From: an uncultured Candidatus Poseidoniales archaeon
GTDB taxonomy: Archaea; Thermoplasmatota; Poseidoniia; Poseidoniales; Thalassarchaeaceae
Reading direction: 5' to 3'
Assembly: GCA_964003245.1 (NCBI GenBank)
Contig: CAXFIU010000001.1
Span: 20,589-84,588 of the forward strand
Length of the DNA: 64,000 nucleotides
The translations under genes and the position numbers were made by a program. The notes under the pieces are model-generated. The model made no database searches, was not told the origin of the DNA, and worked only from the letters and a program-made list of their open reading frames with translations. Shown here piece after piece: positions 19,375 to 38,951 of this stretch (its first letter is position 1; each line of letters opens with the position of its first letter).

Positions 19375-22365
19375 TCAACTCCAATATCTACGAGTTGAAG
19401 CATATTTTAATTCAGCATTATGTATAGAACGTAGCAACCTTACCTTCTCTCCAGGAACATGACCTCTGAGAATTCTTGTGGCAGTTTCTTCCGCAATTCC
19501 TCTCCCCATCATACAAATTATTGCATCTTTACCATGAGTACGTATTAACTCTGCATTCTTAGTCATTTTATCAGAAATCTTTGGGTCTTTACTTTCGACC
19601 CAACCAGATAACATATCTTCCATTCTTTCTGGCGAACATGCTTGCATAGTCCCCGAACAATTAGAGCATGGTTCAACTCTTTCAGTAAATCTTGCGACTC
19701 TCTTTCTTGTTCTATTCTTACAATTCAGACAAATCAATACGGCTCTTTCGTTTACTAATCTAACTTCTAAATGATCTCTAAGTTCTTTATCTGACCAAGA
19801 AGGAAGTAACAAGTCTTTTTCACTCTTTTTTGATTGTCCTAGCGGCCCTGGAGGAGTTTCTAATAATCTTATATCTCCATTTTGAATTTCAGTTAATAAG
19901 TCGACAGTTGCTTCTATATCCATTCTTTCATGGAATAACTTACTTAGAGCCTCTTCTATTACTGGTGTTCCTTTCCATCTCCTCATTAGACCCTGAAGAT
20001 TTACTTTGCGAGGGTCAACTCCTTTTTGCAAAATCCCCATTCTTCTTGCGACTTGTACAACTCTCCATCTTACAGCTCTTCCATTTGGTATCGTCATTCG
20101 CATTAGAGAAGGTATTGCTGCTGGAGGAGTTTCTTGTAACCATCCAATAATATCTGCAGAACTTGTACCTGGAATTTGAATAGATATTCGATAAGGGTCG
20201 ATTAAGGTTCTACCCATTTTCCCTTCTTTTAATGAACCAAATGCTTGAATTAGATATGCTAATGTTTCATTAATTTTAGATCCAGCACATGTGTTTAGAA
20301 TAATTGTTTTTTGCCTTTCTTCTATTGTTATGGTTCTTTCATCAGGCAATACTCCAGTAGCCTCAATATGTTCTGCAACTGTACTAATTAATACATCTCT
20401 TGCACTAGGAGATAGCGGATATTCTTCAAAAGGAATTACAGAATTGTCATCTTCAATTGCCCCAATAGTTATTCCAACAGACCTTCTTAGTTGCCCAACT
20501 TCTCTAGCTACTTCTTTGGGTACAGGAGGTAATTCTCCAGACCATACTGGTGCTTCTCCAGTTTCTTTTATTGGAGCAACTAGAAGCTCTTCTTGTTCTG
20601 GATCCGCATCAACAATTTGCCAAGTTCTTCCTGCCATAACAAATCTTCTTGCTCTTCCGAGTGAATCATCACTAGCATCATTGTTAAGAGATAAAACAAA
20701 CGCCTCATCTACAGAACCAAGAATGGACCTACTTACCGCATCTCTAACTCTATAAGAAATTTCATCAGGAATCATAGAGATATGGTCTGTTCTAGATTTA
20801 GATGCTTTTCCAGATGGAGAAAACCAACCTTTTTCTAAACTCGGGGGGAGTTCTTTTACCATTGCTTTCCTCCATCTTATTTTATCCGATTCTTTTTGCT
20901 CCTCGTCCCAAGGAGGCCTTTTCTCAGGGATATTCTGATTGCTTTTCTTCGCTAACTCTTCCCAAAGTCTCGCTGGCCATTTTGTTACATCTGAATCCTC
21001 AGGGGTTTCAATAAGTCTGATTAACCAACGATCATTTAGAACTCTCAATATATTGATACTTTTTTCATAATTCCATTCTCTGAATATTGAGCAATTTTCT
21101 ATTATCTCATTAGCTTTCTGAAGTGGAACTAATCCTCTCTCTATACCTAATTGAATAAACTGGTTAGCGGCCACAATTCCTGGATCTGTTTGCCACTCTA
21201 CTCCTTCAAGCTCCGACGACATCGCTCTTCTTGATATTACTGCACATTCGGAAATCTCATCTAATTCCCATGCTAGAATTTCTCCTCTTCCTGTACCTCC
21301 TAGATGATGCTCTGCTCTCCCCATTCTTTGCAATAACCTATCTACCGCTCTTGGAGATTGTAATTGATGAACTTTCTTAATTGATCCAATATCAATCCCT
21401 AACTCTAAACTACTAGTACAAATAATCCCGTGTAAATCCCCACTCCTTAATTTGTCTTCCATTTCTTTCCTAGTTTCAGAAGCAAGACTTCCATGATGCA
21501 CTCCAATTTTAATTTCTGGTGCTATAGATGTTAATCTTTGAGATACAGTTTCAGCAGCAGATCTTGAATTAACAAATACTAGAGATGGATAATCATCTCT
21601 TAATGAGTTAGCAAGTCTCCTAAAAGCAGCAACGGAATTGGGAGATACTGACCATTTTACTGATATAATCTCATCTTCAGGAGAAGGGATTTCTTTATGC
21701 ACTAAAACATCTGTAAATCTTGGAGAAGGGCCTAGTATAGGTTGCGCATTATTAGCCATGTAATTAGCAACCTCGTTGGGATTTCCAACAGTTGCTGAAA
21801 GACCAATCCGTTGTATATCATTGGGATTAATATCTGCGATACGTTCGAGTCCAACCATTAACTGCGAACCTCTTTCACTTCCAGCCAAATCATGTATTTC
21901 ATCTAGAATTATGACTTTAACACCTGAAAGATGTTTTCTTAATCTACTTCCGAGCATCATTATTTGTGTAGTTTCTGGTGTAGTAACTAATAAATTTGGA
22001 GGATTTTTTGATTGCCTTGTTCTCTCTTTTTGAGTAGTATCTCCATGCCTTAAACCAACAGTTAATCCAAGAGGTTCCAACATTGTGGACAATCTTCTAT
22101 CAATATCTCTGTTTAATGCCCTTAGTGGAGTAATATATAGAATTGACAAACCTTCCCAATTTTCATTAATCGCTCTTGAAATTACTGGTAATATTGCGGC
22201 TTCGGTTTTGCCACTTCCTGTTGGTGCAACTAATAGCCTATTTTCTCCTGCACATAAATCAATAATTGCTTCTTCTTGAATAGGTGTCAGATTCCAACCC
22301 AATTTGGATATTAATCCTCTAACTTTCGGGTGCAGAATTTCTATTGCTGCCCCTTCCATACCCAT
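19375..22365 (-). CDS. lhr: Lhr-type large superfamily-2 helicase with C-terminal zinc ribbon
   Basis: VAPTGSGKTEAAILPV (motif I), ILDEIHDL (DEIH box), RMGRAEH region; about 1000 aa; C-terminal CLNCKN...CSNC. Confidence 0.8.
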   Translation of the reverse strand: MGMEGAAIEILHPKVRGLISKLGWNLTPIQEEAIIDLCAGENRLLVAPTGSGKTEAAILPVISRAINENWEGLSILYITPLRALNRDIDRRLSTMLEPLGLTVGLRHGDTTQKERTRQSKNPPNLLVTTPETTQIMMLGSRLRKHLSGVKVIILDEIHDLAGSERGSQLMVGLERIADINPNDIQRIGLSATVGNPNEVANYMANNAQPILGPSPRFTDVLVHKEIPSPEDEIISVKWSVSPNSVAAFRRLANSLRDDYPSLVFVNSRSAAETVSQRLTSIAPEIKIGVHHGSLASETRKEMEDKLRSGDLHGIICTSSLELGIDIGSIKKVHQLQSPRAVDRLLQRMGRAEHHLGGTGRGEILAWELDEISECAVISRRAMSSELEGVEWQTDPGIVAANQFIQLGIERGLVPLQKANEIIENCSIFREWNYEKSINILRVLNDRWLIRLIETPEDSDVTKWPARLWEELAKKSNQNIPEKRPPWDEEQKESDKIRWRKAMVKELPPSLEKGWFSPSGKASKSRTDHISMIPDEISYRVRDAVSRSILGSVDEAFVLSLNNDASDDSLGRARRFVMAGRTWQIVDADPEQEELLVAPIKETGEAPVWSGELPPVPKEVAREVGQLRRSVGITIGAIEDDNSVIPFEEYPLSPSARDVLISTVAEHIEATGVLPDERTITIEERQKTIILNTCAGSKINETLAYLIQAFGSLKEGKMGRTLIDPYRISIQIPGTSSADIIGWLQETPPAAIPSLMRMTIPNGRAVRWRVVQVARRMGILQKGVDPRKVNLQGLMRRWKGTPVIEEALSKLFHERMDIEATVDLLTEIQNGDIRLLETPPGPLGQSKKSEKDLLLPSWSDKELRDHLEVRLVNERAVLICLNCKNRTRKRVARFTERVEPCSNCSGTMQACSPERMEDMLSGWVESKDPKISDKMTKNAELIRTHGKDAIICMMGRGIAEETATRILRGHVPGEKVRLLRSIHNAELKYASTRRYWS

Positions 22366-22424: not shown

Positions 22425-23609
22425 TTATGGATGTGGAGGTATTTCATCATTCCAATTTTCCATCTTGTTTAATGTGATTGTTACATTTGTTATTTCCCCA
22501 TCTTCCCAATAATCAACGGCTACAAATGTAGGTCTTCTATCCATAATTTCCCAACATTCTATAGTACGATTTAGTAAAAAATCATACTCATTTATCTCAT
22601 GAGCCTTGTAAGGATCTGCAGTGCCAAATATACTACTCAACCAATGGCTTAGATGCCAAACAGGTTGATTTGAATCTCCTCTCCCCAATTCGCATGTCAT
22701 TTCCTCTTTATCTTGTTGACCATATGGAGTATCCCAACTGTGCTTCCATGCGGGATGGAAATACGGATAACTCTCATTGTAATCATTCTGAACATATATC
22801 ACCACATCCTTTTTTTGTAGAATCATGTCTCCTATTGAAGGCCAAGGTTCTCCTAATTGATGAATAAATACTCTTTCTAAAATTCCAGTTTGATTAAATA
22901 AAAACTCTAGATGATCCGCAGGAACATAGTTTTCAACTAGTATTGATACAACCTCTCCACATACAAATGAACAATTCTCATCAGTTAAATTCATTTGTGA
23001 ATTTAGAAGAGATAACCACTCAAATGCATCTACTTCAGAATACGCACATGGGTGCGGAAACTGACCAGGAGAACCATGACAGAATCTTACATCTTCTGCC
23101 TCAGTTTCATCATTACTTAGATGATGTGCATCCACCATAAATGCTCTAATTCCTCCATCCCATTGAGCTTGAAGTCCAGTATAGTGATTAGTCCCAAGAA
23201 TTACACCATCTTCTGATGTAGCAAAAGCATTGTGTGTCTCAGGAAATGTAAAATTATCATAGTTTCTTAAACAGTATTTTGACAATCCATGGCAAATAAT
23301 CGTATCATTCTGATCTAGTGGGTCAAGACCTCTTTCTGATTCCCAGTCATTCGGCAAGTCATCTCCATCTATATCTTCATCCAAAGTGTCGCAGATTGTA
23401 TCGCCATCTAGGTCATTAGGCATTTCTTCAGAATTATCGGGATTACTATTACAATCAATTTCAATTAGATTTTCCCATCCGTCTCCATCTCTATCTAAAT
23501 CTTCACTATCTTCTATACCGTCATTATCCATGTCTAGAAACTCATCTCCTATGCAACCTGAAAGGACCAAGCCAACAACAATCAGAATCACTATCCAACG
23601 CTTTCCCAT
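22425..23609 (-). CDS. Secreted lipobox protein: thrombospondin-type-3-like Ca-binding repeats + PI-PLC X-domain-like phosphodiesterase
   Basis: Signal/lipobox MGKRWIVILIVVGLVLSGC; DxDxDG repeats (DMDNDGIEDSEDLDRDGDGW, DLDGDTICD, DIDGDDLPNDW); catalytic-like region ETHNAFATSEDGVILGTNHYTGLQAQWDGGIRAFMVDAHH resembling SHNTY...GCRxxELD of PLC X domains. Confidence 0.55.
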   Translation of the reverse strand: MGKRWIVILIVVGLVLSGCIGDEFLDMDNDGIEDSEDLDRDGDGWENLIEIDCNSNPDNSEEMPNDLDGDTICDTLDEDIDGDDLPNDWESERGLDPLDQNDTIICHGLSKYCLRNYDNFTFPETHNAFATSEDGVILGTNHYTGLQAQWDGGIRAFMVDAHHLSNDETEAEDVRFCHGSPGQFPHPCAYSEVDAFEWLSLLNSQMNLTDENCSFVCGEVVSILVENYVPADHLEFLFNQTGILERVFIHQLGEPWPSIGDMILQKKDVVIYVQNDYNESYPYFHPAWKHSWDTPYGQQDKEEMTCELGRGDSNQPVWHLSHWLSSIFGTADPYKAHEINEYDFLLNRTIECWEIMDRRPTFVAVDYWEDGEITNVTITLNKMENWNDEIPPHP

Positions 23610-23719
23610 AGTATTCCATTGATAGCATAGCACATCAATTAATTGGTATGATTGTGCTTTTGATGTGAACTTGTTAGCGTAAGACACTAAGCCACGAAGC
23701 CTTACCCACGATTGATATA

Positions 23720-24502
23720 ATGGCTCGTCGAGATGAAAGAAACTTGAGTTTTTTTGGCCGATTATGGGAAAGTCAGAGGGGCCGACATTTCCAAATTGTC
23801 AGAAATGTTTCAATTTTGTCCGTGGCTCTATTGGTTTGGGGTATAATTTTCCTTTTCGGACTTTCTGGGCCAACTGATCCATCCAAAGAAAATATCGTAG
23901 CTTTAAGTTGGATAGGTATGTTAATTGGAGCCATTGGTACATTCTATGTCGGCCCTGAGTTCTTCTACTATCTTGAGAAGAAACAGGTTCTCGATGATAT
24001 TCTATTGTTGGATTCACGTGCTGAAGTATTAAGACGTCGGAAAGAAGGTGAAGAAGCAGCAATTATGCTTGGAGAGAAGTACATGGGTATGATGCGAGGA
24101 TTACTTGAATTACATGAAATACCTGTAGGAAAGAATCTGACTAATTCTCCAATAATTAACTCTCATAGCGATGCCAATGTTGAAGGAAATTGGTGGAATA
24201 ATTCAGACTCAACTCTCTCACATAAACTTCCGGGATTAGATCTAATTAGAGAGTTATTTTTCCATAGAATATTAATTTTAATAACATCATTTAGTTTAAT
24301 TATGTTATTTTGGAATACTATTTTTGGTATTGCTTCTATGGGTGGTTCTAGAGAGTATACAATCGACCTCACAGAGAGGATTAGCGGCATCTCCTCTTTC
24401 CATCATCTTGCTCCTCACATAGATCCGGTTAGTATTATTTTAATTCTCTTCTTATCTTTCATATTATATCTAACTAGGCCGTATAACTACAAGGAGATTT
24501 AG
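23720..24502 (+). CDS. Hypothetical membrane protein
   Basis: Four or more hydrophobic helices; no recognisable motif. Confidence 0.4.
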   Translation: MARRDERNLSFFGRLWESQRGRHFQIVRNVSILSVALLVWGIIFLFGLSGPTDPSKENIVALSWIGMLIGAIGTFYVGPEFFYYLEKKQVLDDILLLDSRAEVLRRRKEGEEAAIMLGEKYMGMMRGLLELHEIPVGKNLTNSPIINSHSDANVEGNWWNNSDSTLSHKLPGLDLIRELFFHRILILITSFSLIMLFWNTIFGIASMGGSREYTIDLTERISGISSFHHLAPHIDPVSIILILFLSFILYLTRPYNYKEI

Positions 24503-24503
24503 T

Positions 24504-25388
24504 ATGGGAAATGATTTCAACCTCTATCTTAGAGAGGCATTTCTTGCCATAGGGCTGGTTTTCTTATTGCTTGGGTCAATGTGGTTAGCTACCGGCATGT
24601 TCCCTCCAATGGTTGTTGTTGAATCCGGTTCAATGAAACATAGTGAGGATGGATCTTTAGGAGCAATTGATCCTGGTGATTTGGTATTAATTATGAATCC
24701 TGATAGAGTCGACATAGTCACATATGTAGAAGCTTCTAATGAAGGAAATGAGAATTTTGGATATGAAATGCATGGCATGTATGGAGACGTAATTATTTAT
24801 GAAAAAAATGGAGGTTCTGATACTCCAGTAATTCATAGAGCATTACTCAAAGCAGAAGCAAATTTAACTGAAGACCCAATTGATGACTCATGTTCAGAGG
24901 GCGTATTTGATCATTTAGAAGAAATATGTATTTTAACATGGGATGTCCCAGGAACTCATTTAGTCAATGTAAATAATATTTCTTTAACATTAGATTATTC
25001 TTGCGCACCTCATGGAAATCTAACAATCGATAAGTGGGTTCCTGGACATGAAGGATATCTGACAACAGGAGATAATAGAATAACTAATGGATGTACAATT
25101 GATCAATTAAGAGCAACAAGTTCTACAGCCGATGAATCCTACATCCAGAGCCGTGGGTTAAAGGATGAATATGGTAATCCTGTAACTGCTGTAAGAGATG
25201 TTTGGGTAGTTGGTGTTGCATCATCTGAGATTCCATGGGTTGGAGCGATCAAACTCTTCTTTTCAGGAACTTATGATTTTGTATCTCCACAAACTTGGAA
25301 TTATCTGTTTACGTTGATTGCAGCAGTGGTCATAATTCCTATGGTTTATGATATGTTAATATTTAGAGAAAGTGAAGAAGAAGAATAG
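24504..25388 (+). CDS. Archaeal type I signal peptidase (S26B/Sec11-like) with extended ecto-domain and C-terminal TM
   Basis: N-terminal TM then VVVESGSMKHSEDGSLGAIDPGDLVLIMNP (boxes B/C) and LTTGDNRITNGCTIDQ (box D GDN). Confidence 0.65.
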   Translation: MGNDFNLYLREAFLAIGLVFLLLGSMWLATGMFPPMVVVESGSMKHSEDGSLGAIDPGDLVLIMNPDRVDIVTYVEASNEGNENFGYEMHGMYGDVIIYEKNGGSDTPVIHRALLKAEANLTEDPIDDSCSEGVFDHLEEICILTWDVPGTHLVNVNNISLTLDYSCAPHGNLTIDKWVPGHEGYLTTGDNRITNGCTIDQLRATSSTADESYIQSRGLKDEYGNPVTAVRDVWVVGVASSEIPWVGAIKLFFSGTYDFVSPQTWNYLFTLIAAVVIIPMVYDMLIFRESEEEE

Positions 25389-37298: not shown

Positions 37299-38951
37299 AT
37301 GGCCAATTTTCGCGATTATACTCGTAGATTAACTACCTTGAAAGCACGTCGTAATATGTTGATTGGAGCTTTTTGGATTTTACTAATTCTCTTAATTTCT
37401 ACAATAGCAGCAACTTACGTCACAGATGGTCAAACTCAGCAATCAGCATATGGCGATGACTGGAACGATCTTGGTTTGTTTAGAGCTGAGATAAATAGCA
37501 TGGGAGTAGATACAACTGCATTGGTATCAAGCCCTCTATTATTGAGTGAGATCGATCATCCTGAAGAAGCTATTTTCATTATATCGGGTGTAGAGAAAGA
37601 TACTATCTCACTGCCTAGATTTACAGGTGATGAGAATGTGATTGAATTATCTGAGGGTTCGGGCTACACAACTTCTGAGATACTTGCAATCGATGAATTT
37701 GTTGAAGCAGGTGGTACTGTACTTTTGATGGATGATAAAGGCTATTCTTCAACTTTAGCAGAACAGTTTGGATTAGAATTCTCAGGCCATACCTTGTATG
37801 ATGGAGAAGCATATGCTACAGAATTAGATTACAATTTCATTTGGGTAAATACTACATCTGCCTTTAATTTCACAACTAATTCTGGTTCTTTATCAAGCAT
37901 TCATCCATGTCTTAGAGATACAGATACTGATGGTTTCATTGATTTACTAGACACTGACCCTTATGATATTACAACATTTCCAGCAGGAATTACTCGTGAA
38001 GATGCAGGATTGTGCTCCCACCGATGGATATCAGAAACACAATGGGATTTCTCTGAGAATTATAATTTGTTAACTAACCAACCATCTGCTTTCAATGCAG
38101 GTTCTTATAATCCCGTAGAAAATAGATATGATATAGGAAAATCTACTCTTGATTCATATTTAGATACTAATGATGACGGTAATCTCACGATTGGTTCTTC
38201 TGCATTTGGAATTGATGGAGATGAAGTAGGCCCATTTGCTGTTTATGTCCGTTACTGTGCAGATCGTTTGTGTGTAGGGGCTGACTCTGGAAGAGTACAT
38301 TTTGTTGCAGATGGTTCAGTATTAACTAATTCATTGTATGACGATGCATTTTACTCAGGAGTAGACGATGTTGTTCCTTCAAATGATAATAGGAAATGGG
38401 CGCTCGACATTATTGCAGAATCTTTATTGATTGGCAATTCGAGTGCAAAAAGTTCTTCAAATGCGATTGTAATTTTTGATGAATCAAGACATCAACAACC
38501 TACATTATTCGGAGATACATATAACTTAATGTATTACTTATTGATCTATTTTACCAATGATTGGATGGCAATGTTACTATTATTCCTTGGTTTATTTATT
38601 ACTTTAGAGGCGGTTTTAATTCGTAAAGAAGATCCTGAAAACTGGCGACATGTATTCAGAATAATTTACTACGGTTTTGGAGACGCTAGGAGATATGAAT
38701 ATTATCAAAAACCTGAAAAAATAAGGCAGGTATTACTTACGAGAATACGAAATCTGAATACGCTTTCAAGAGAAGAATTTGATGCACTCCCCGCTGCTGA
38801 ATTACAAAGAATGATTGATGACCAAGTATTAACTAAATTCATTTTCGAAGATAGAAGATATAAGCCCGATGAATTGGTTGGGATTGTGAAAAGAATCAAG
38901 GAATGGGGTTCAACTAATTCTGAAGAGGAGGTAGAATATGTGGACTCGTAA
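37299..38951 (+). CDS. DUF4350-like membrane-anchored ecto-protein (N- and C-terminal TM, large Asp/Thr-rich external domain)
   Basis: N-terminal TM MLIGAFWILLILLISTIAA, external domain with IVIFDESRHQQ block, C-terminal TM MAMLLLFLGLFITL; first gene of SD-coupled three-gene unit. Confidence 0.45.
   Translation: MANFRDYTRRLTTLKARRNMLIGAFWILLILLISTIAATYVTDGQTQQSAYGDDWNDLGLFRAEINSMGVDTTALVSSPLLLSEIDHPEEAIFIISGVEKDTISLPRFTGDENVIELSEGSGYTTSEILAIDEFVEAGGTVLLMDDKGYSSTLAEQFGLEFSGHTLYDGEAYATELDYNFIWVNTTSAFNFTTNSGSLSSIHPCLRDTDTDGFIDLLDTDPYDITTFPAGITREDAGLCSHRWISETQWDFSENYNLLTNQPSAFNAGSYNPVENRYDIGKSTLDSYLDTNDDGNLTIGSSAFGIDGDEVGPFAVYVRYCADRLCVGADSGRVHFVADGSVLTNSLYDDAFYSGVDDVVPSNDNRKWALDIIAESLLIGNSSAKSSSNAIVIFDESRHQQPTLFGDTYNLMYYLLIYFTNDWMAMLLLFLGLFITLEAVLIRKEDPENWRHVFRIIYYGFGDARRYEYYQKPEKIRQVLLTRIRNLNTLSREEFDALPAAELQRMIDDQVLTKFIFEDRRYKPDELVGIVKRIKEWGSTNSEEEVEYVDS

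Follow-up and report, generated by a model that had tools for sequence, protein, structure and literature searches.

Phosphoinositide-specific phospholipases C (PI-PLCs) are known in several forms against which the gene described here can be compared: the metal-independent enzymes of Listeria (PlcA; structure 2plc) and of Bacillus cereus and Bacillus thuringiensis (1ptd and 6s2a), which belong to Pfam family PF00388; the Ca2+-dependent bacterial enzymes of Streptomyces antibioticus (3h4x) and Pseudomonas (5fyo), which belong to PF16670; and eukaryotic enzymes such as PLC-delta1 (1djg and 1qas; EC 3.1.4.11), a cytosolic signalling protein. The catalytic Ca2+ of PLC-delta1 is held by N312, E341, D343 and E390, and in the Bacillus enzyme Arg69 stands in for the metal. 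Essen et al. 1996 and Heinz et al. 1995 are said to have described the histidines of PI-PLCs as a general base and a general acid. Alongside these enzymes stand the bacterial proteins of two further Pfam families, PF26146 (PI-PLC_X) and PF26178 (Rv2075c_cat), such as WP_394844475 of Pendulispora and Rv2075c of Mycobacterium tuberculosis. Here we analyse a related gene at 22425..23609 (minus strand) of a 64,000-nucleotide stretch of DNA from an uncultured Candidatus Poseidoniales archaeon of the Thalassarchaeaceae (assembly GCA_964003245.1, contig CAXFIU010000001.1, positions 20,589 to 84,588); we call that whole stretch the window.

We read the product of this gene as an extracytoplasmic lipoprotein enzyme, a phosphodiesterase of the PI-PLC type, and we give this reading a probability of roughly 0.6. 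As predicted from its sequence, the gene consists of three parts, all on the minus strand: a signal peptide with a lipobox (residues 1-19; 23553..23609), an acidic, putatively Ca-binding stalk that resembles thrombospondin type 3 (TSP3) repeats (residues 20-105; 23295..23552), and a PLC-like TIM-barrel phosphodiesterase domain of about 290 amino acids (residues 106-394; 22428..23294). The product is thus a putative membrane-tethered enzyme, probably Ca-dependent and of PLC fold, on an acidic Ca-binding stalk. Pfam already has entries for the catalytic domain, which occurs widely among bacteria, and the window gene is a well-conserved but uncharacterised archaeal member.

The reading frame, taken from the list of open reading frames (ORFs) and its translation, has 394 codons and a TAA stop: it starts with ATG at 23609, stops at 22427-22425, and encodes 394 amino acids. 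The identical 394-residue protein, with the same start, has been called independently on 9 marine metagenome contigs, one of them from a Tara Oceans assembly. The longest mechanical ORF is longer and begins with a GTG at 23687; we disfavour this start, given that homologues begin at or near the methionine of MGKRW. In pairwise comparisons of the window gene with five orthologues (79-96% protein identity), the ratio of nonsynonymous to synonymous substitution rates, dN/dS, lies between 0.06 and 0.10. Thus, we conclude that the window ORF is a real, expressed gene under strong purifying selection, and on the same values we reject a pseudogene or a chance ORF.

The family to which the catalytic domain belongs is clear from profile matches. 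Precomputed Pfam matches to both PF26146 and PF26178, at E <= 1e-5, exist for the exact window protein, and all of the listed homologues likewise carry both. The predicted domain is thus a member of these two families. It is not one of PF00388 or PF16670 by the thresholds of those models, the hidden Markov models (HMMs) by which the original prediction had proposed to recognise it. That prediction had also named the lack of a significant PLC-like HMM match as a count against itself, and a direct hmmscan of the window protein against local copies of Pfam-A and NCBIfam indeed gave no PLC-related match. The local Pfam-A, however, is older than the precomputed tables (it holds PF00388.25, and they hold PF00388.26) and is evidently without PF26146 and PF26178. 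Therefore, the local negative is not evidence of absence, and it is offset by the newer Pfam models.

The family is large. A profile of the catalytic domain matches 2,671 cluster representatives at E <= 1e-3, and 287 of these at E <= 1e-30, as whole-domain matches. Bacterial PF26146/PF26178 proteins, of which those of Pendulispora and M. tuberculosis named above are examples, share the same domain from end to end, with about 270 aligned residues at E-values of 1e-35 to 1e-47 to the family profile, and they share its motifs as well: C-N/H-G-x4-C, T-H-N, G-x-R-x4-D, C-H-G, an invariant Glu, R-G and V-D. Several of the relatives reach PF00388 in the local library; two distant ones, P0155 and P0211, match the family profile at E about 1e-40 and also pass PF00388 (27.0 and 25.1 bits; cut-off 23.1). 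Because these two proteins pass that model and the window protein does not, the relation to the classical X domain is one of superfamily or clan.

When the profile is broad enough, this relation can be recovered directly. We built one profile, A3, from 54 diverse family members, besides a close-family profile, A1, and a narrow one, A2. Searched against all PDB sequences, A3 returned 43, every one a PI-PLC; the best match was the Listeria enzyme (E 2e-7), followed by those of Bacillus and S. aureus and by PLC-beta, delta, gamma and zeta. The single-sequence phmmer search and the A1 hmmsearch against the same database found only the TSP3-like region of BamM and a spurious match to a collagen adhesin, and an hhalign comparison of A2 with the X-box of PLC-delta1 failed (probability 0.5%).

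Predicted structure gives the same answer. The full-length AlphaFold model is mediocre (mean confidence, as pLDDT, of 72.6, with a poor C-terminus) and yields weak Foldseek matches; it was superseded by a model of the catalytic domain alone. The structural score of that model is highest against the Listeria PI-PLC (20.6 over 228 residues, at 2.9 A) and the Bacillus PI-PLC (19.2). The Ca2+-dependent enzymes of Pseudomonas (15.8) and Streptomyces (15.6) score below these metal-independent ones, followed by the eukaryotic PLC gamma, epsilon, beta and zeta at about 15. Phospholipase D (PLD) reaches 12.8, glycerophosphodiester phosphodiesterases (GDPDs) about 10 (10.8 or lower), and generic TIM barrels remain below 9; Foldseek agrees. 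Since the PI-PLCs stand well above PLD and the GDPDs in a clear hierarchy, the modelled domain is a PI-PLC-type (beta/alpha) barrel of the PLC-like phosphodiesterase TIM-barrel superfamily, to whose fold PI-PLC, GDPD and SMase D all belong.

The active site was compared by aligning A3 with two enzymes of known structure, whose query sequences (the X-box of rat PLC-delta1, and the B. cereus PI-PLC) are exact matches to PDB entries. Over the N-terminal half of the barrel, hhalign gave E 1.4e-5 and a probability of 80% for the PLC-delta1 X-box, and E 1.1e-4 and 56% for the Bacillus enzyme. H126 of the window protein aligns with H311 of PLC-delta1 and H32 of Bacillus PI-PLC, and H178 aligns with H356 and H82, respectively. 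In the same order, N127 pairs with N312 and D33, M158 with E341 and D67, D160 with D343 and R69, and E226 with E390 and K115. The stretch ETHNAF...GIRAFMVDAHH, which the original prediction had matched by eye to the X-box catalytic block, does align with that block in the profile alignments, and the pair of catalytic histidines on which the prediction had staked its PLC-like domain is present.

Conservation follows the same residues. Nine residues do not vary across the 54 relatives (24-49% identity): H126, N127, Q149, G153, H178, C306, G311, N340 and C352. Another five, R155, D160, E226, R310 and D366, reach a conservation of at least 90%. The last of these lies within V-D-Y, a motif similar to I-Q-D274-Y in Bacillus PI-PLC, and may be the counterpart of D274 there. 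With both histidines invariant, and with PI-PLCs the sole PDB matches of A3, we are highly confident that the domain has the predicted fold and is catalytically competent.

We next consider whether the enzyme would use a metal. The family matches three of the four Ca2+ ligands of PLC-delta1 (N127, D160 and E226). In the metal-independent Bacillus enzyme, the residues equivalent to Asp160, Asn127 and Glu226 are Arg69, Asp33 and Lys115, so that the site of the window protein is of the metal type and not of the Arg type; sequence identity to the metal-independent Bacillus and Listeria enzymes is only 14-16%. In 1t6m, a Bacillus enzyme carrying the mutation R70D, the engineered Asp aligns by hmmsearch with the conserved Asp of the family. 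Given the His pair, the three of four Ca2+ ligands and the missing Arg, the PLC-like family most likely uses a divalent metal; that the enzyme depends on it we consider, by analogy, probable. Seawater contains about 10 mM Ca2+, and this would saturate both the putative metal site and the stalk.

It is important to separate this chemistry from ancestry, for the original prediction had called the domain a eukaryote-like PI-PLC X domain. The label suits the active site, with its His-Asn pair, its Asp in place of Arg69 and its Glu, but it fails for architecture, best structures and relatives. Compared with PLC-delta1, the barrel of the window protein is a single contiguous unit with no X/Y linker, and a local Pfam-A scan of the protein found no PH, EF-hand or C2 domains. 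PLC-delta1 works in the cytosol, whereas the window protein is predicted to be extracellular and lipid-anchored. The best structural matches are bacterial, and so are the closest named non-archaeal relatives, which share about 24-33% identity and come from Myxococcota (including Pendulispora), Actinomycetota (Microthrixaceae), Pirellulales and Sulfobacillus; UniRef names the Pendulispora protein 'PLC-like phosphodiesterase' and the Sulfobacillus protein 'Phosphatidylinositol diacyl...'. With all near named relatives bacterial and the architecture of bacterial type, we reject horizontal transfer from a eukaryote to an archaeon. Relative to the bacterial PF26146/PF26178 proteins, those of marine group II (MGII) archaea form a divergent branch at about 24-33% identity, and those of MGIIb have in addition a modular TSP3-like stalk.

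The bacterial members also bear on where such enzymes act. Non-archaeal members of the family, where named, are all bacterial and often lipoproteins. Some are fused to a PF16670 PI-PLC, to GH1 together with an endonuclease/exonuclease/phosphatase domain, to an S15/CocE peptidase, or to a type IX secretion system (T9SS) sorting tail (P0155, P0269, P0164 and P0211), and many carry lipoprotein-like signals at the N-terminus. Because of these fusions and signals, the family as a whole looks like one of secreted or surface-anchored phosphodiesterases. The fusions to a second PI-PLC and to GH1 with the phosphatase-type domain, like the UniRef names, also speak for a link to lipids or phosphate.

The window protein itself begins with such a signal, MGKRW-IVILIVVGLVL-SGC, which reads as an n-region with K3 and R4, a hydrophobic core of 11 residues, and a lipobox L16-S17-G18-C19. 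A lipobox has been defined as [L/V/I] at -3, [A/S/T/V/I] at -2, [G/A/S] at -1 and C at +1, after a positive n-region and a hydrophobic h-region (PMC12462473), and the sequence L16-S17-G18-C19 after K3, R4 and I6-L15 agrees with this definition. Proteins with a lipobox are prevalent in Euryarchaeota, and in Haloferax lipidation proceeds via AliA and AliB (PMC12462473). Of 34 homologues whose N-terminus is complete, 33 close the hydrophobic stretch with x-x-[G/A]-C, and the remaining one has C-S-G-C. The lipoprotein signal of the original prediction thus stands, and C19 would be the lipidated first residue of the mature protein.

The cysteines point in the same direction. The catalytic domain has eight, at positions 106, 113, 177, 188, 213, 217, 306 and 352, a number compatible with four disulfides; C106, C113, C177, C188, C306 and C352 are conserved across the 54 relatives. 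Together with C53 and C73 of the stalk this makes ten besides the lipobox Cys, compatible with five disulfides and with a location outside the cytoplasm, where these bonds would presumably form. C213 and C217 lie within a 7-residue insertion (residues 211-220; window 22950-22979, minus strand) that most of the family is without, and that is found also in P0001, P0002, P0004, P0005, P0008 and P0013; it is probably an extra disulfide-stapled loop.

Between the anchor and the enzyme lies the stalk, for which its Asp content, its DxDxDG motifs and the PF18884 scores of its homologues speak. Asp makes up 28% of residues 20-105. The region can be divided into two TSP3-like units, DMDNDGIEDSEDLDRDGDGW...C53 and DLDGDTIC73DTLDEDIDGDDLPNDWE; it contains the motifs DMDNDG, DLDRDGDG and DEDIDGDD and the one Cys pair C53/C73. 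The pattern D.D.D[GDN] has five overlapping matches here, a count that was reached in 0 of 10,000 shuffles of the protein. What the stalk shares with bacterial TSP3 regions (PF18884; BamM, 9n2d_D) and with the type 3 repeats of thrombospondin and COMP is the DxDxDGxxD motif with interspersed Cys pairs; it differs from them in having two units only, in scoring below the reporting threshold in the window protein, and in linking a lipid anchor to an enzyme.

In profile searches, hmmscan of the window protein against local Pfam-A gave no TSP3 match (PF02412 or PF18884), and its homologues P0018 and P0053 score 26.2 and 25.6 bits against the PF18884 TSP3_bac threshold of 25. With the close-family profile, BamM (9n2d_D) is found through its TSP3-like segment, at E 3.8e-5, and Foldseek pairs the stalk with the signature domains of COMP and thrombospondin (TSP-2) at 27-34% identity, with weak scores. 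The motifs of the Ca-binding, TSP3-type repeats of the original prediction are therefore present beyond chance, and the type of repeat is probably that of the bacterial PF18884, with the window protein itself below threshold. A scan of the genes in the window found no other that combines a lipobox with DxDxDG motifs. One further ORF alone, of 550 amino acids at 37299-38951 (plus strand), comes near this pattern, with two DxDxDG-like motifs behind a hydrophobic stretch at its N-terminus.

The length of the stalk varies among orthologues in a regular manner. Counted from the lipobox Cys up to where the catalytic domain has its first Cys, it mostly measures 87, 126-127 or 166 residues; two proteins have 111. 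Growth thus comes mainly in increments of about 40 residues that bring two Cys apiece, and the lineage of the window carries the short two-unit form (87). In MGIIa (Poseidoniaceae), orthologues of about 315-320 amino acids keep the lipobox and the barrel, and the stalk is absent. Since stalk lengths are quantised and the MGIIa orthologues are stalkless, this pattern suggests that gain and loss of repeats tunes the distance of the enzyme from the membrane.

How common is such a protein in these archaea? The original prediction held its function to be unusual for the phylum, which was an overstatement: a scan of species-representative genomes found relatives at no fewer than 147 loci, so that the gene is widespread in MGII. 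Among the best 80 loci the informative titles are all MGII, Poseidoniales or Thalassarchaeaceae, and the others are generic names of archaeal phyla. The closest locus, in the metagenome-assembled genome UBA439, is 99% identical over the catalytic domain and 97-99% identical for the flanking genes. Every MGII copy with a name in its source is called 'hypothetical protein', and we found no literature that links MGII or Poseidoniales to a phospholipase of this kind.

We compared gene neighbourhoods over 81 loci (L001-L081). At about 50 of them, including the window, the order is Hjc, an M50 protease, two unknown membrane proteins, the PLC-like gene, an Lhr-type helicase and an AAA_18 kinase. A further arrangement occurs at 27 of the 81, in MGIIb lineages (for example at L014, 4815-6900, and L044, 4742-6876): here a gene for polyphosphate kinase 2 (PPK2) immediately precedes the PLC-like gene on the same strand, and the series reads TIM, PPK2, PLC-like. 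About 35 nt separate the two if the Met that precedes the signal peptide is taken as the start; with a TTG start they apparently overlap by 4 nt. This adjacency may mark a phosphorus-related operon, and it is weak but suggestive evidence that the PLC-like gene is linked to phosphorus metabolism. There is no PPK2 in the window.

In the window, the two membrane-protein genes lie at 23720-24502 and 24504-25388 (both plus strand), divergent to the PLC-like gene; they have no Pfam matches and are syntenic at the same roughly 50 of 81 loci. The one at 23720-24502, with the sequence VVESGSMKH, has a weak, sub-threshold match to the archaeal signal peptidase I model TIGR02228 (E 6.8e-4; 19.5 against a cut-off of 51.85 bits) and may be a very divergent signal peptidase. 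On the other side, 59 nt downstream and on the same strand, lies the 996-amino-acid Lhr-type helicase (19375-22365, minus strand; DEAD, Helicase_C and DEAD_assoc domains). The spacer between the PLC-like gene and the helicase contains the T-rich stretch GGGTTTTCT, which could be an archaeal terminator.

Taken together, these features suggest the following mechanism. The precursor would be exported, its signal peptide removed at the lipobox and Cys19 modified with lipid, and the mature protein would then be tethered to the outer face of the membrane. Residues 20-105 would form an acidic stalk of two TSP3-like units, loaded with Ca2+ and stapled by a disulfide, that holds the catalytic domain off the membrane. 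The PI-PLC-type TIM barrel of residues 106-394 would cut a phosphodiester bond by general acid/base catalysis through His126 and His178, with Ca2+ held by Asn127, Asp160 and Glu226 in place of the Arg69 of the metal-independent Bacillus enzyme. Its substrates would most likely be the headgroup phosphodiesters of inositol-type or related phospholipids, or glycolipid anchors, that occur in organic matter, whether dissolved or particulate. Cleavage would release a lipid moiety and a phosphorylated headgroup, which the heterotrophic MGII cell could use as sources of phosphorus and carbon.

Several observations weigh against this account. There is no match to PF00388 (cut-off 23.1 bits) at E <= 10 in the window protein or its close homologues, and PF16670 (PI-PLC-C1; threshold 29.9 bits) is negative for the window protein by direct HMM search. 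The profile alignments of the active site span only the N-terminal half of the barrel, and their hhalign probabilities are moderate. At the position of the fourth Ca2+ ligand, E341 of PLC-delta1, the window protein has Met158, and the family has Met or Leu throughout; thus the metal site, if present, is not identical to that of PLC-delta1. The housekeeping neighbourhood of Lhr helicase, M50 protease and Hjc is uninformative on function, and the adjacency to PPK2 could be inherited synteny instead of an operon. To our knowledge, neither lipoprotein biogenesis nor lipidation of the Cys has been demonstrated in any MGII archaeon. Likewise, we know of no member of PF26146/PF26178 that has been assayed. 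Membership therefore gives the fold and not the function, and both the substrate and the metal dependence rest on analogy.

The substrate is accordingly the softest part of the account. A lipid or inositol substrate, drawn by analogy from the PI-PLCs, is a tentative assignment to which we give somewhat less than even odds, and a physiological role in the supply of phosphorus and carbon is likewise tentative. The ether lipids that the original prediction offered as substrates are pure speculation. If the substrate is not a lipid, the protein could instead be a phosphorus-scavenging phosphodiesterase, an ecto-enzyme in the style of GlpQ and the GDPDs and not a membrane phospholipase, acting on soluble compounds such as glycerophosphodiesters, teichoic-acid-like polymers or other small phosphodiesters. 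We regard this alternative as unlikely.

Still less likely, in our view, is an action on the cell's own envelope, in which the enzyme would either alter headgroups on the archaeon's phospho(inositol) lipids or set free the cell's own lipid-anchored surface proteins, as the glycosylphosphatidylinositol (GPI)-PLC of trypanosomes does. The lipobox would tether the enzyme to its own membrane, and the gene is widespread in MGII and has, at about 50 of the 81 loci, conserved neighbours of a housekeeping kind, among them the M50 protease and the gene with the weak signal-peptidase-I match; this distribution and setting suit a core envelope function more than an accessory nutrient gene. However, a stalk of 87-166 amino acids keeps the catalytic domain off that membrane, and it is not established that MGII lipids carry suitable headgroups. 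Nor is the neighbourhood kept at the PPK2-type loci, and there is thus no obligatory coupling to the housekeeping neighbours.

A non-catalytic adhesin or lectin, with a barrel that would bind sugar or inositol and a TSP3 stalk that would lend Ca-dependent adhesion to particles or other cells, is very improbable: TSP3 repeats are known in adhesion proteins, and reviews on lectins of mycobacteria and on glycan-mediated adhesion cover Rv2075c, to judge by their titles, but across thousands of relatives both catalytic His and the residues proposed to bind metal show little or no variation, which is unexpected for a mere binding module, and MGIIa orthologues keep the barrel without the TSP3 stalk.

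Returning to the lipoprotein phosphodiesterase, the present analysis gives an MGII 'hypothetical protein' a fold, together with predictions of its active site and location. At the level of the protein family there is no surprise, given a domain that Pfam already holds and that bacteria carry widely; the modular stalk is the feature that stands out. MGII ranks among the most abundant groups of archaea in the plankton. Its members are uncultured, and what can be said of their surface biology comes from genomes alone. A strongly conserved and probably surface-anchored hydrolase, found at 147 loci or more, is therefore a concrete candidate for expression and assay. One may go further and suppose that most MGII display a Ca2+-dependent, PI-PLC-like ecto-enzyme on an adjustable stalk, co-expressed with PPK2 in some lineages, which strips phosphorylated headgroups or GPI-anchored proteins from the membranes of phytoplankton or bacteria. 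This extension we consider distinctly unlikely, at a level between the soluble-substrate and own-envelope alternatives; if it were true, the ecto-enzyme would give archaea a hitherto unrecognised access to the phospholipid phosphorus of the sea, and possibly a means of contact-dependent attack on other cells. Cleavage of headgroups, if true, would in itself tie MGII to the turnover of organic phosphorus and lipids in the surface ocean.

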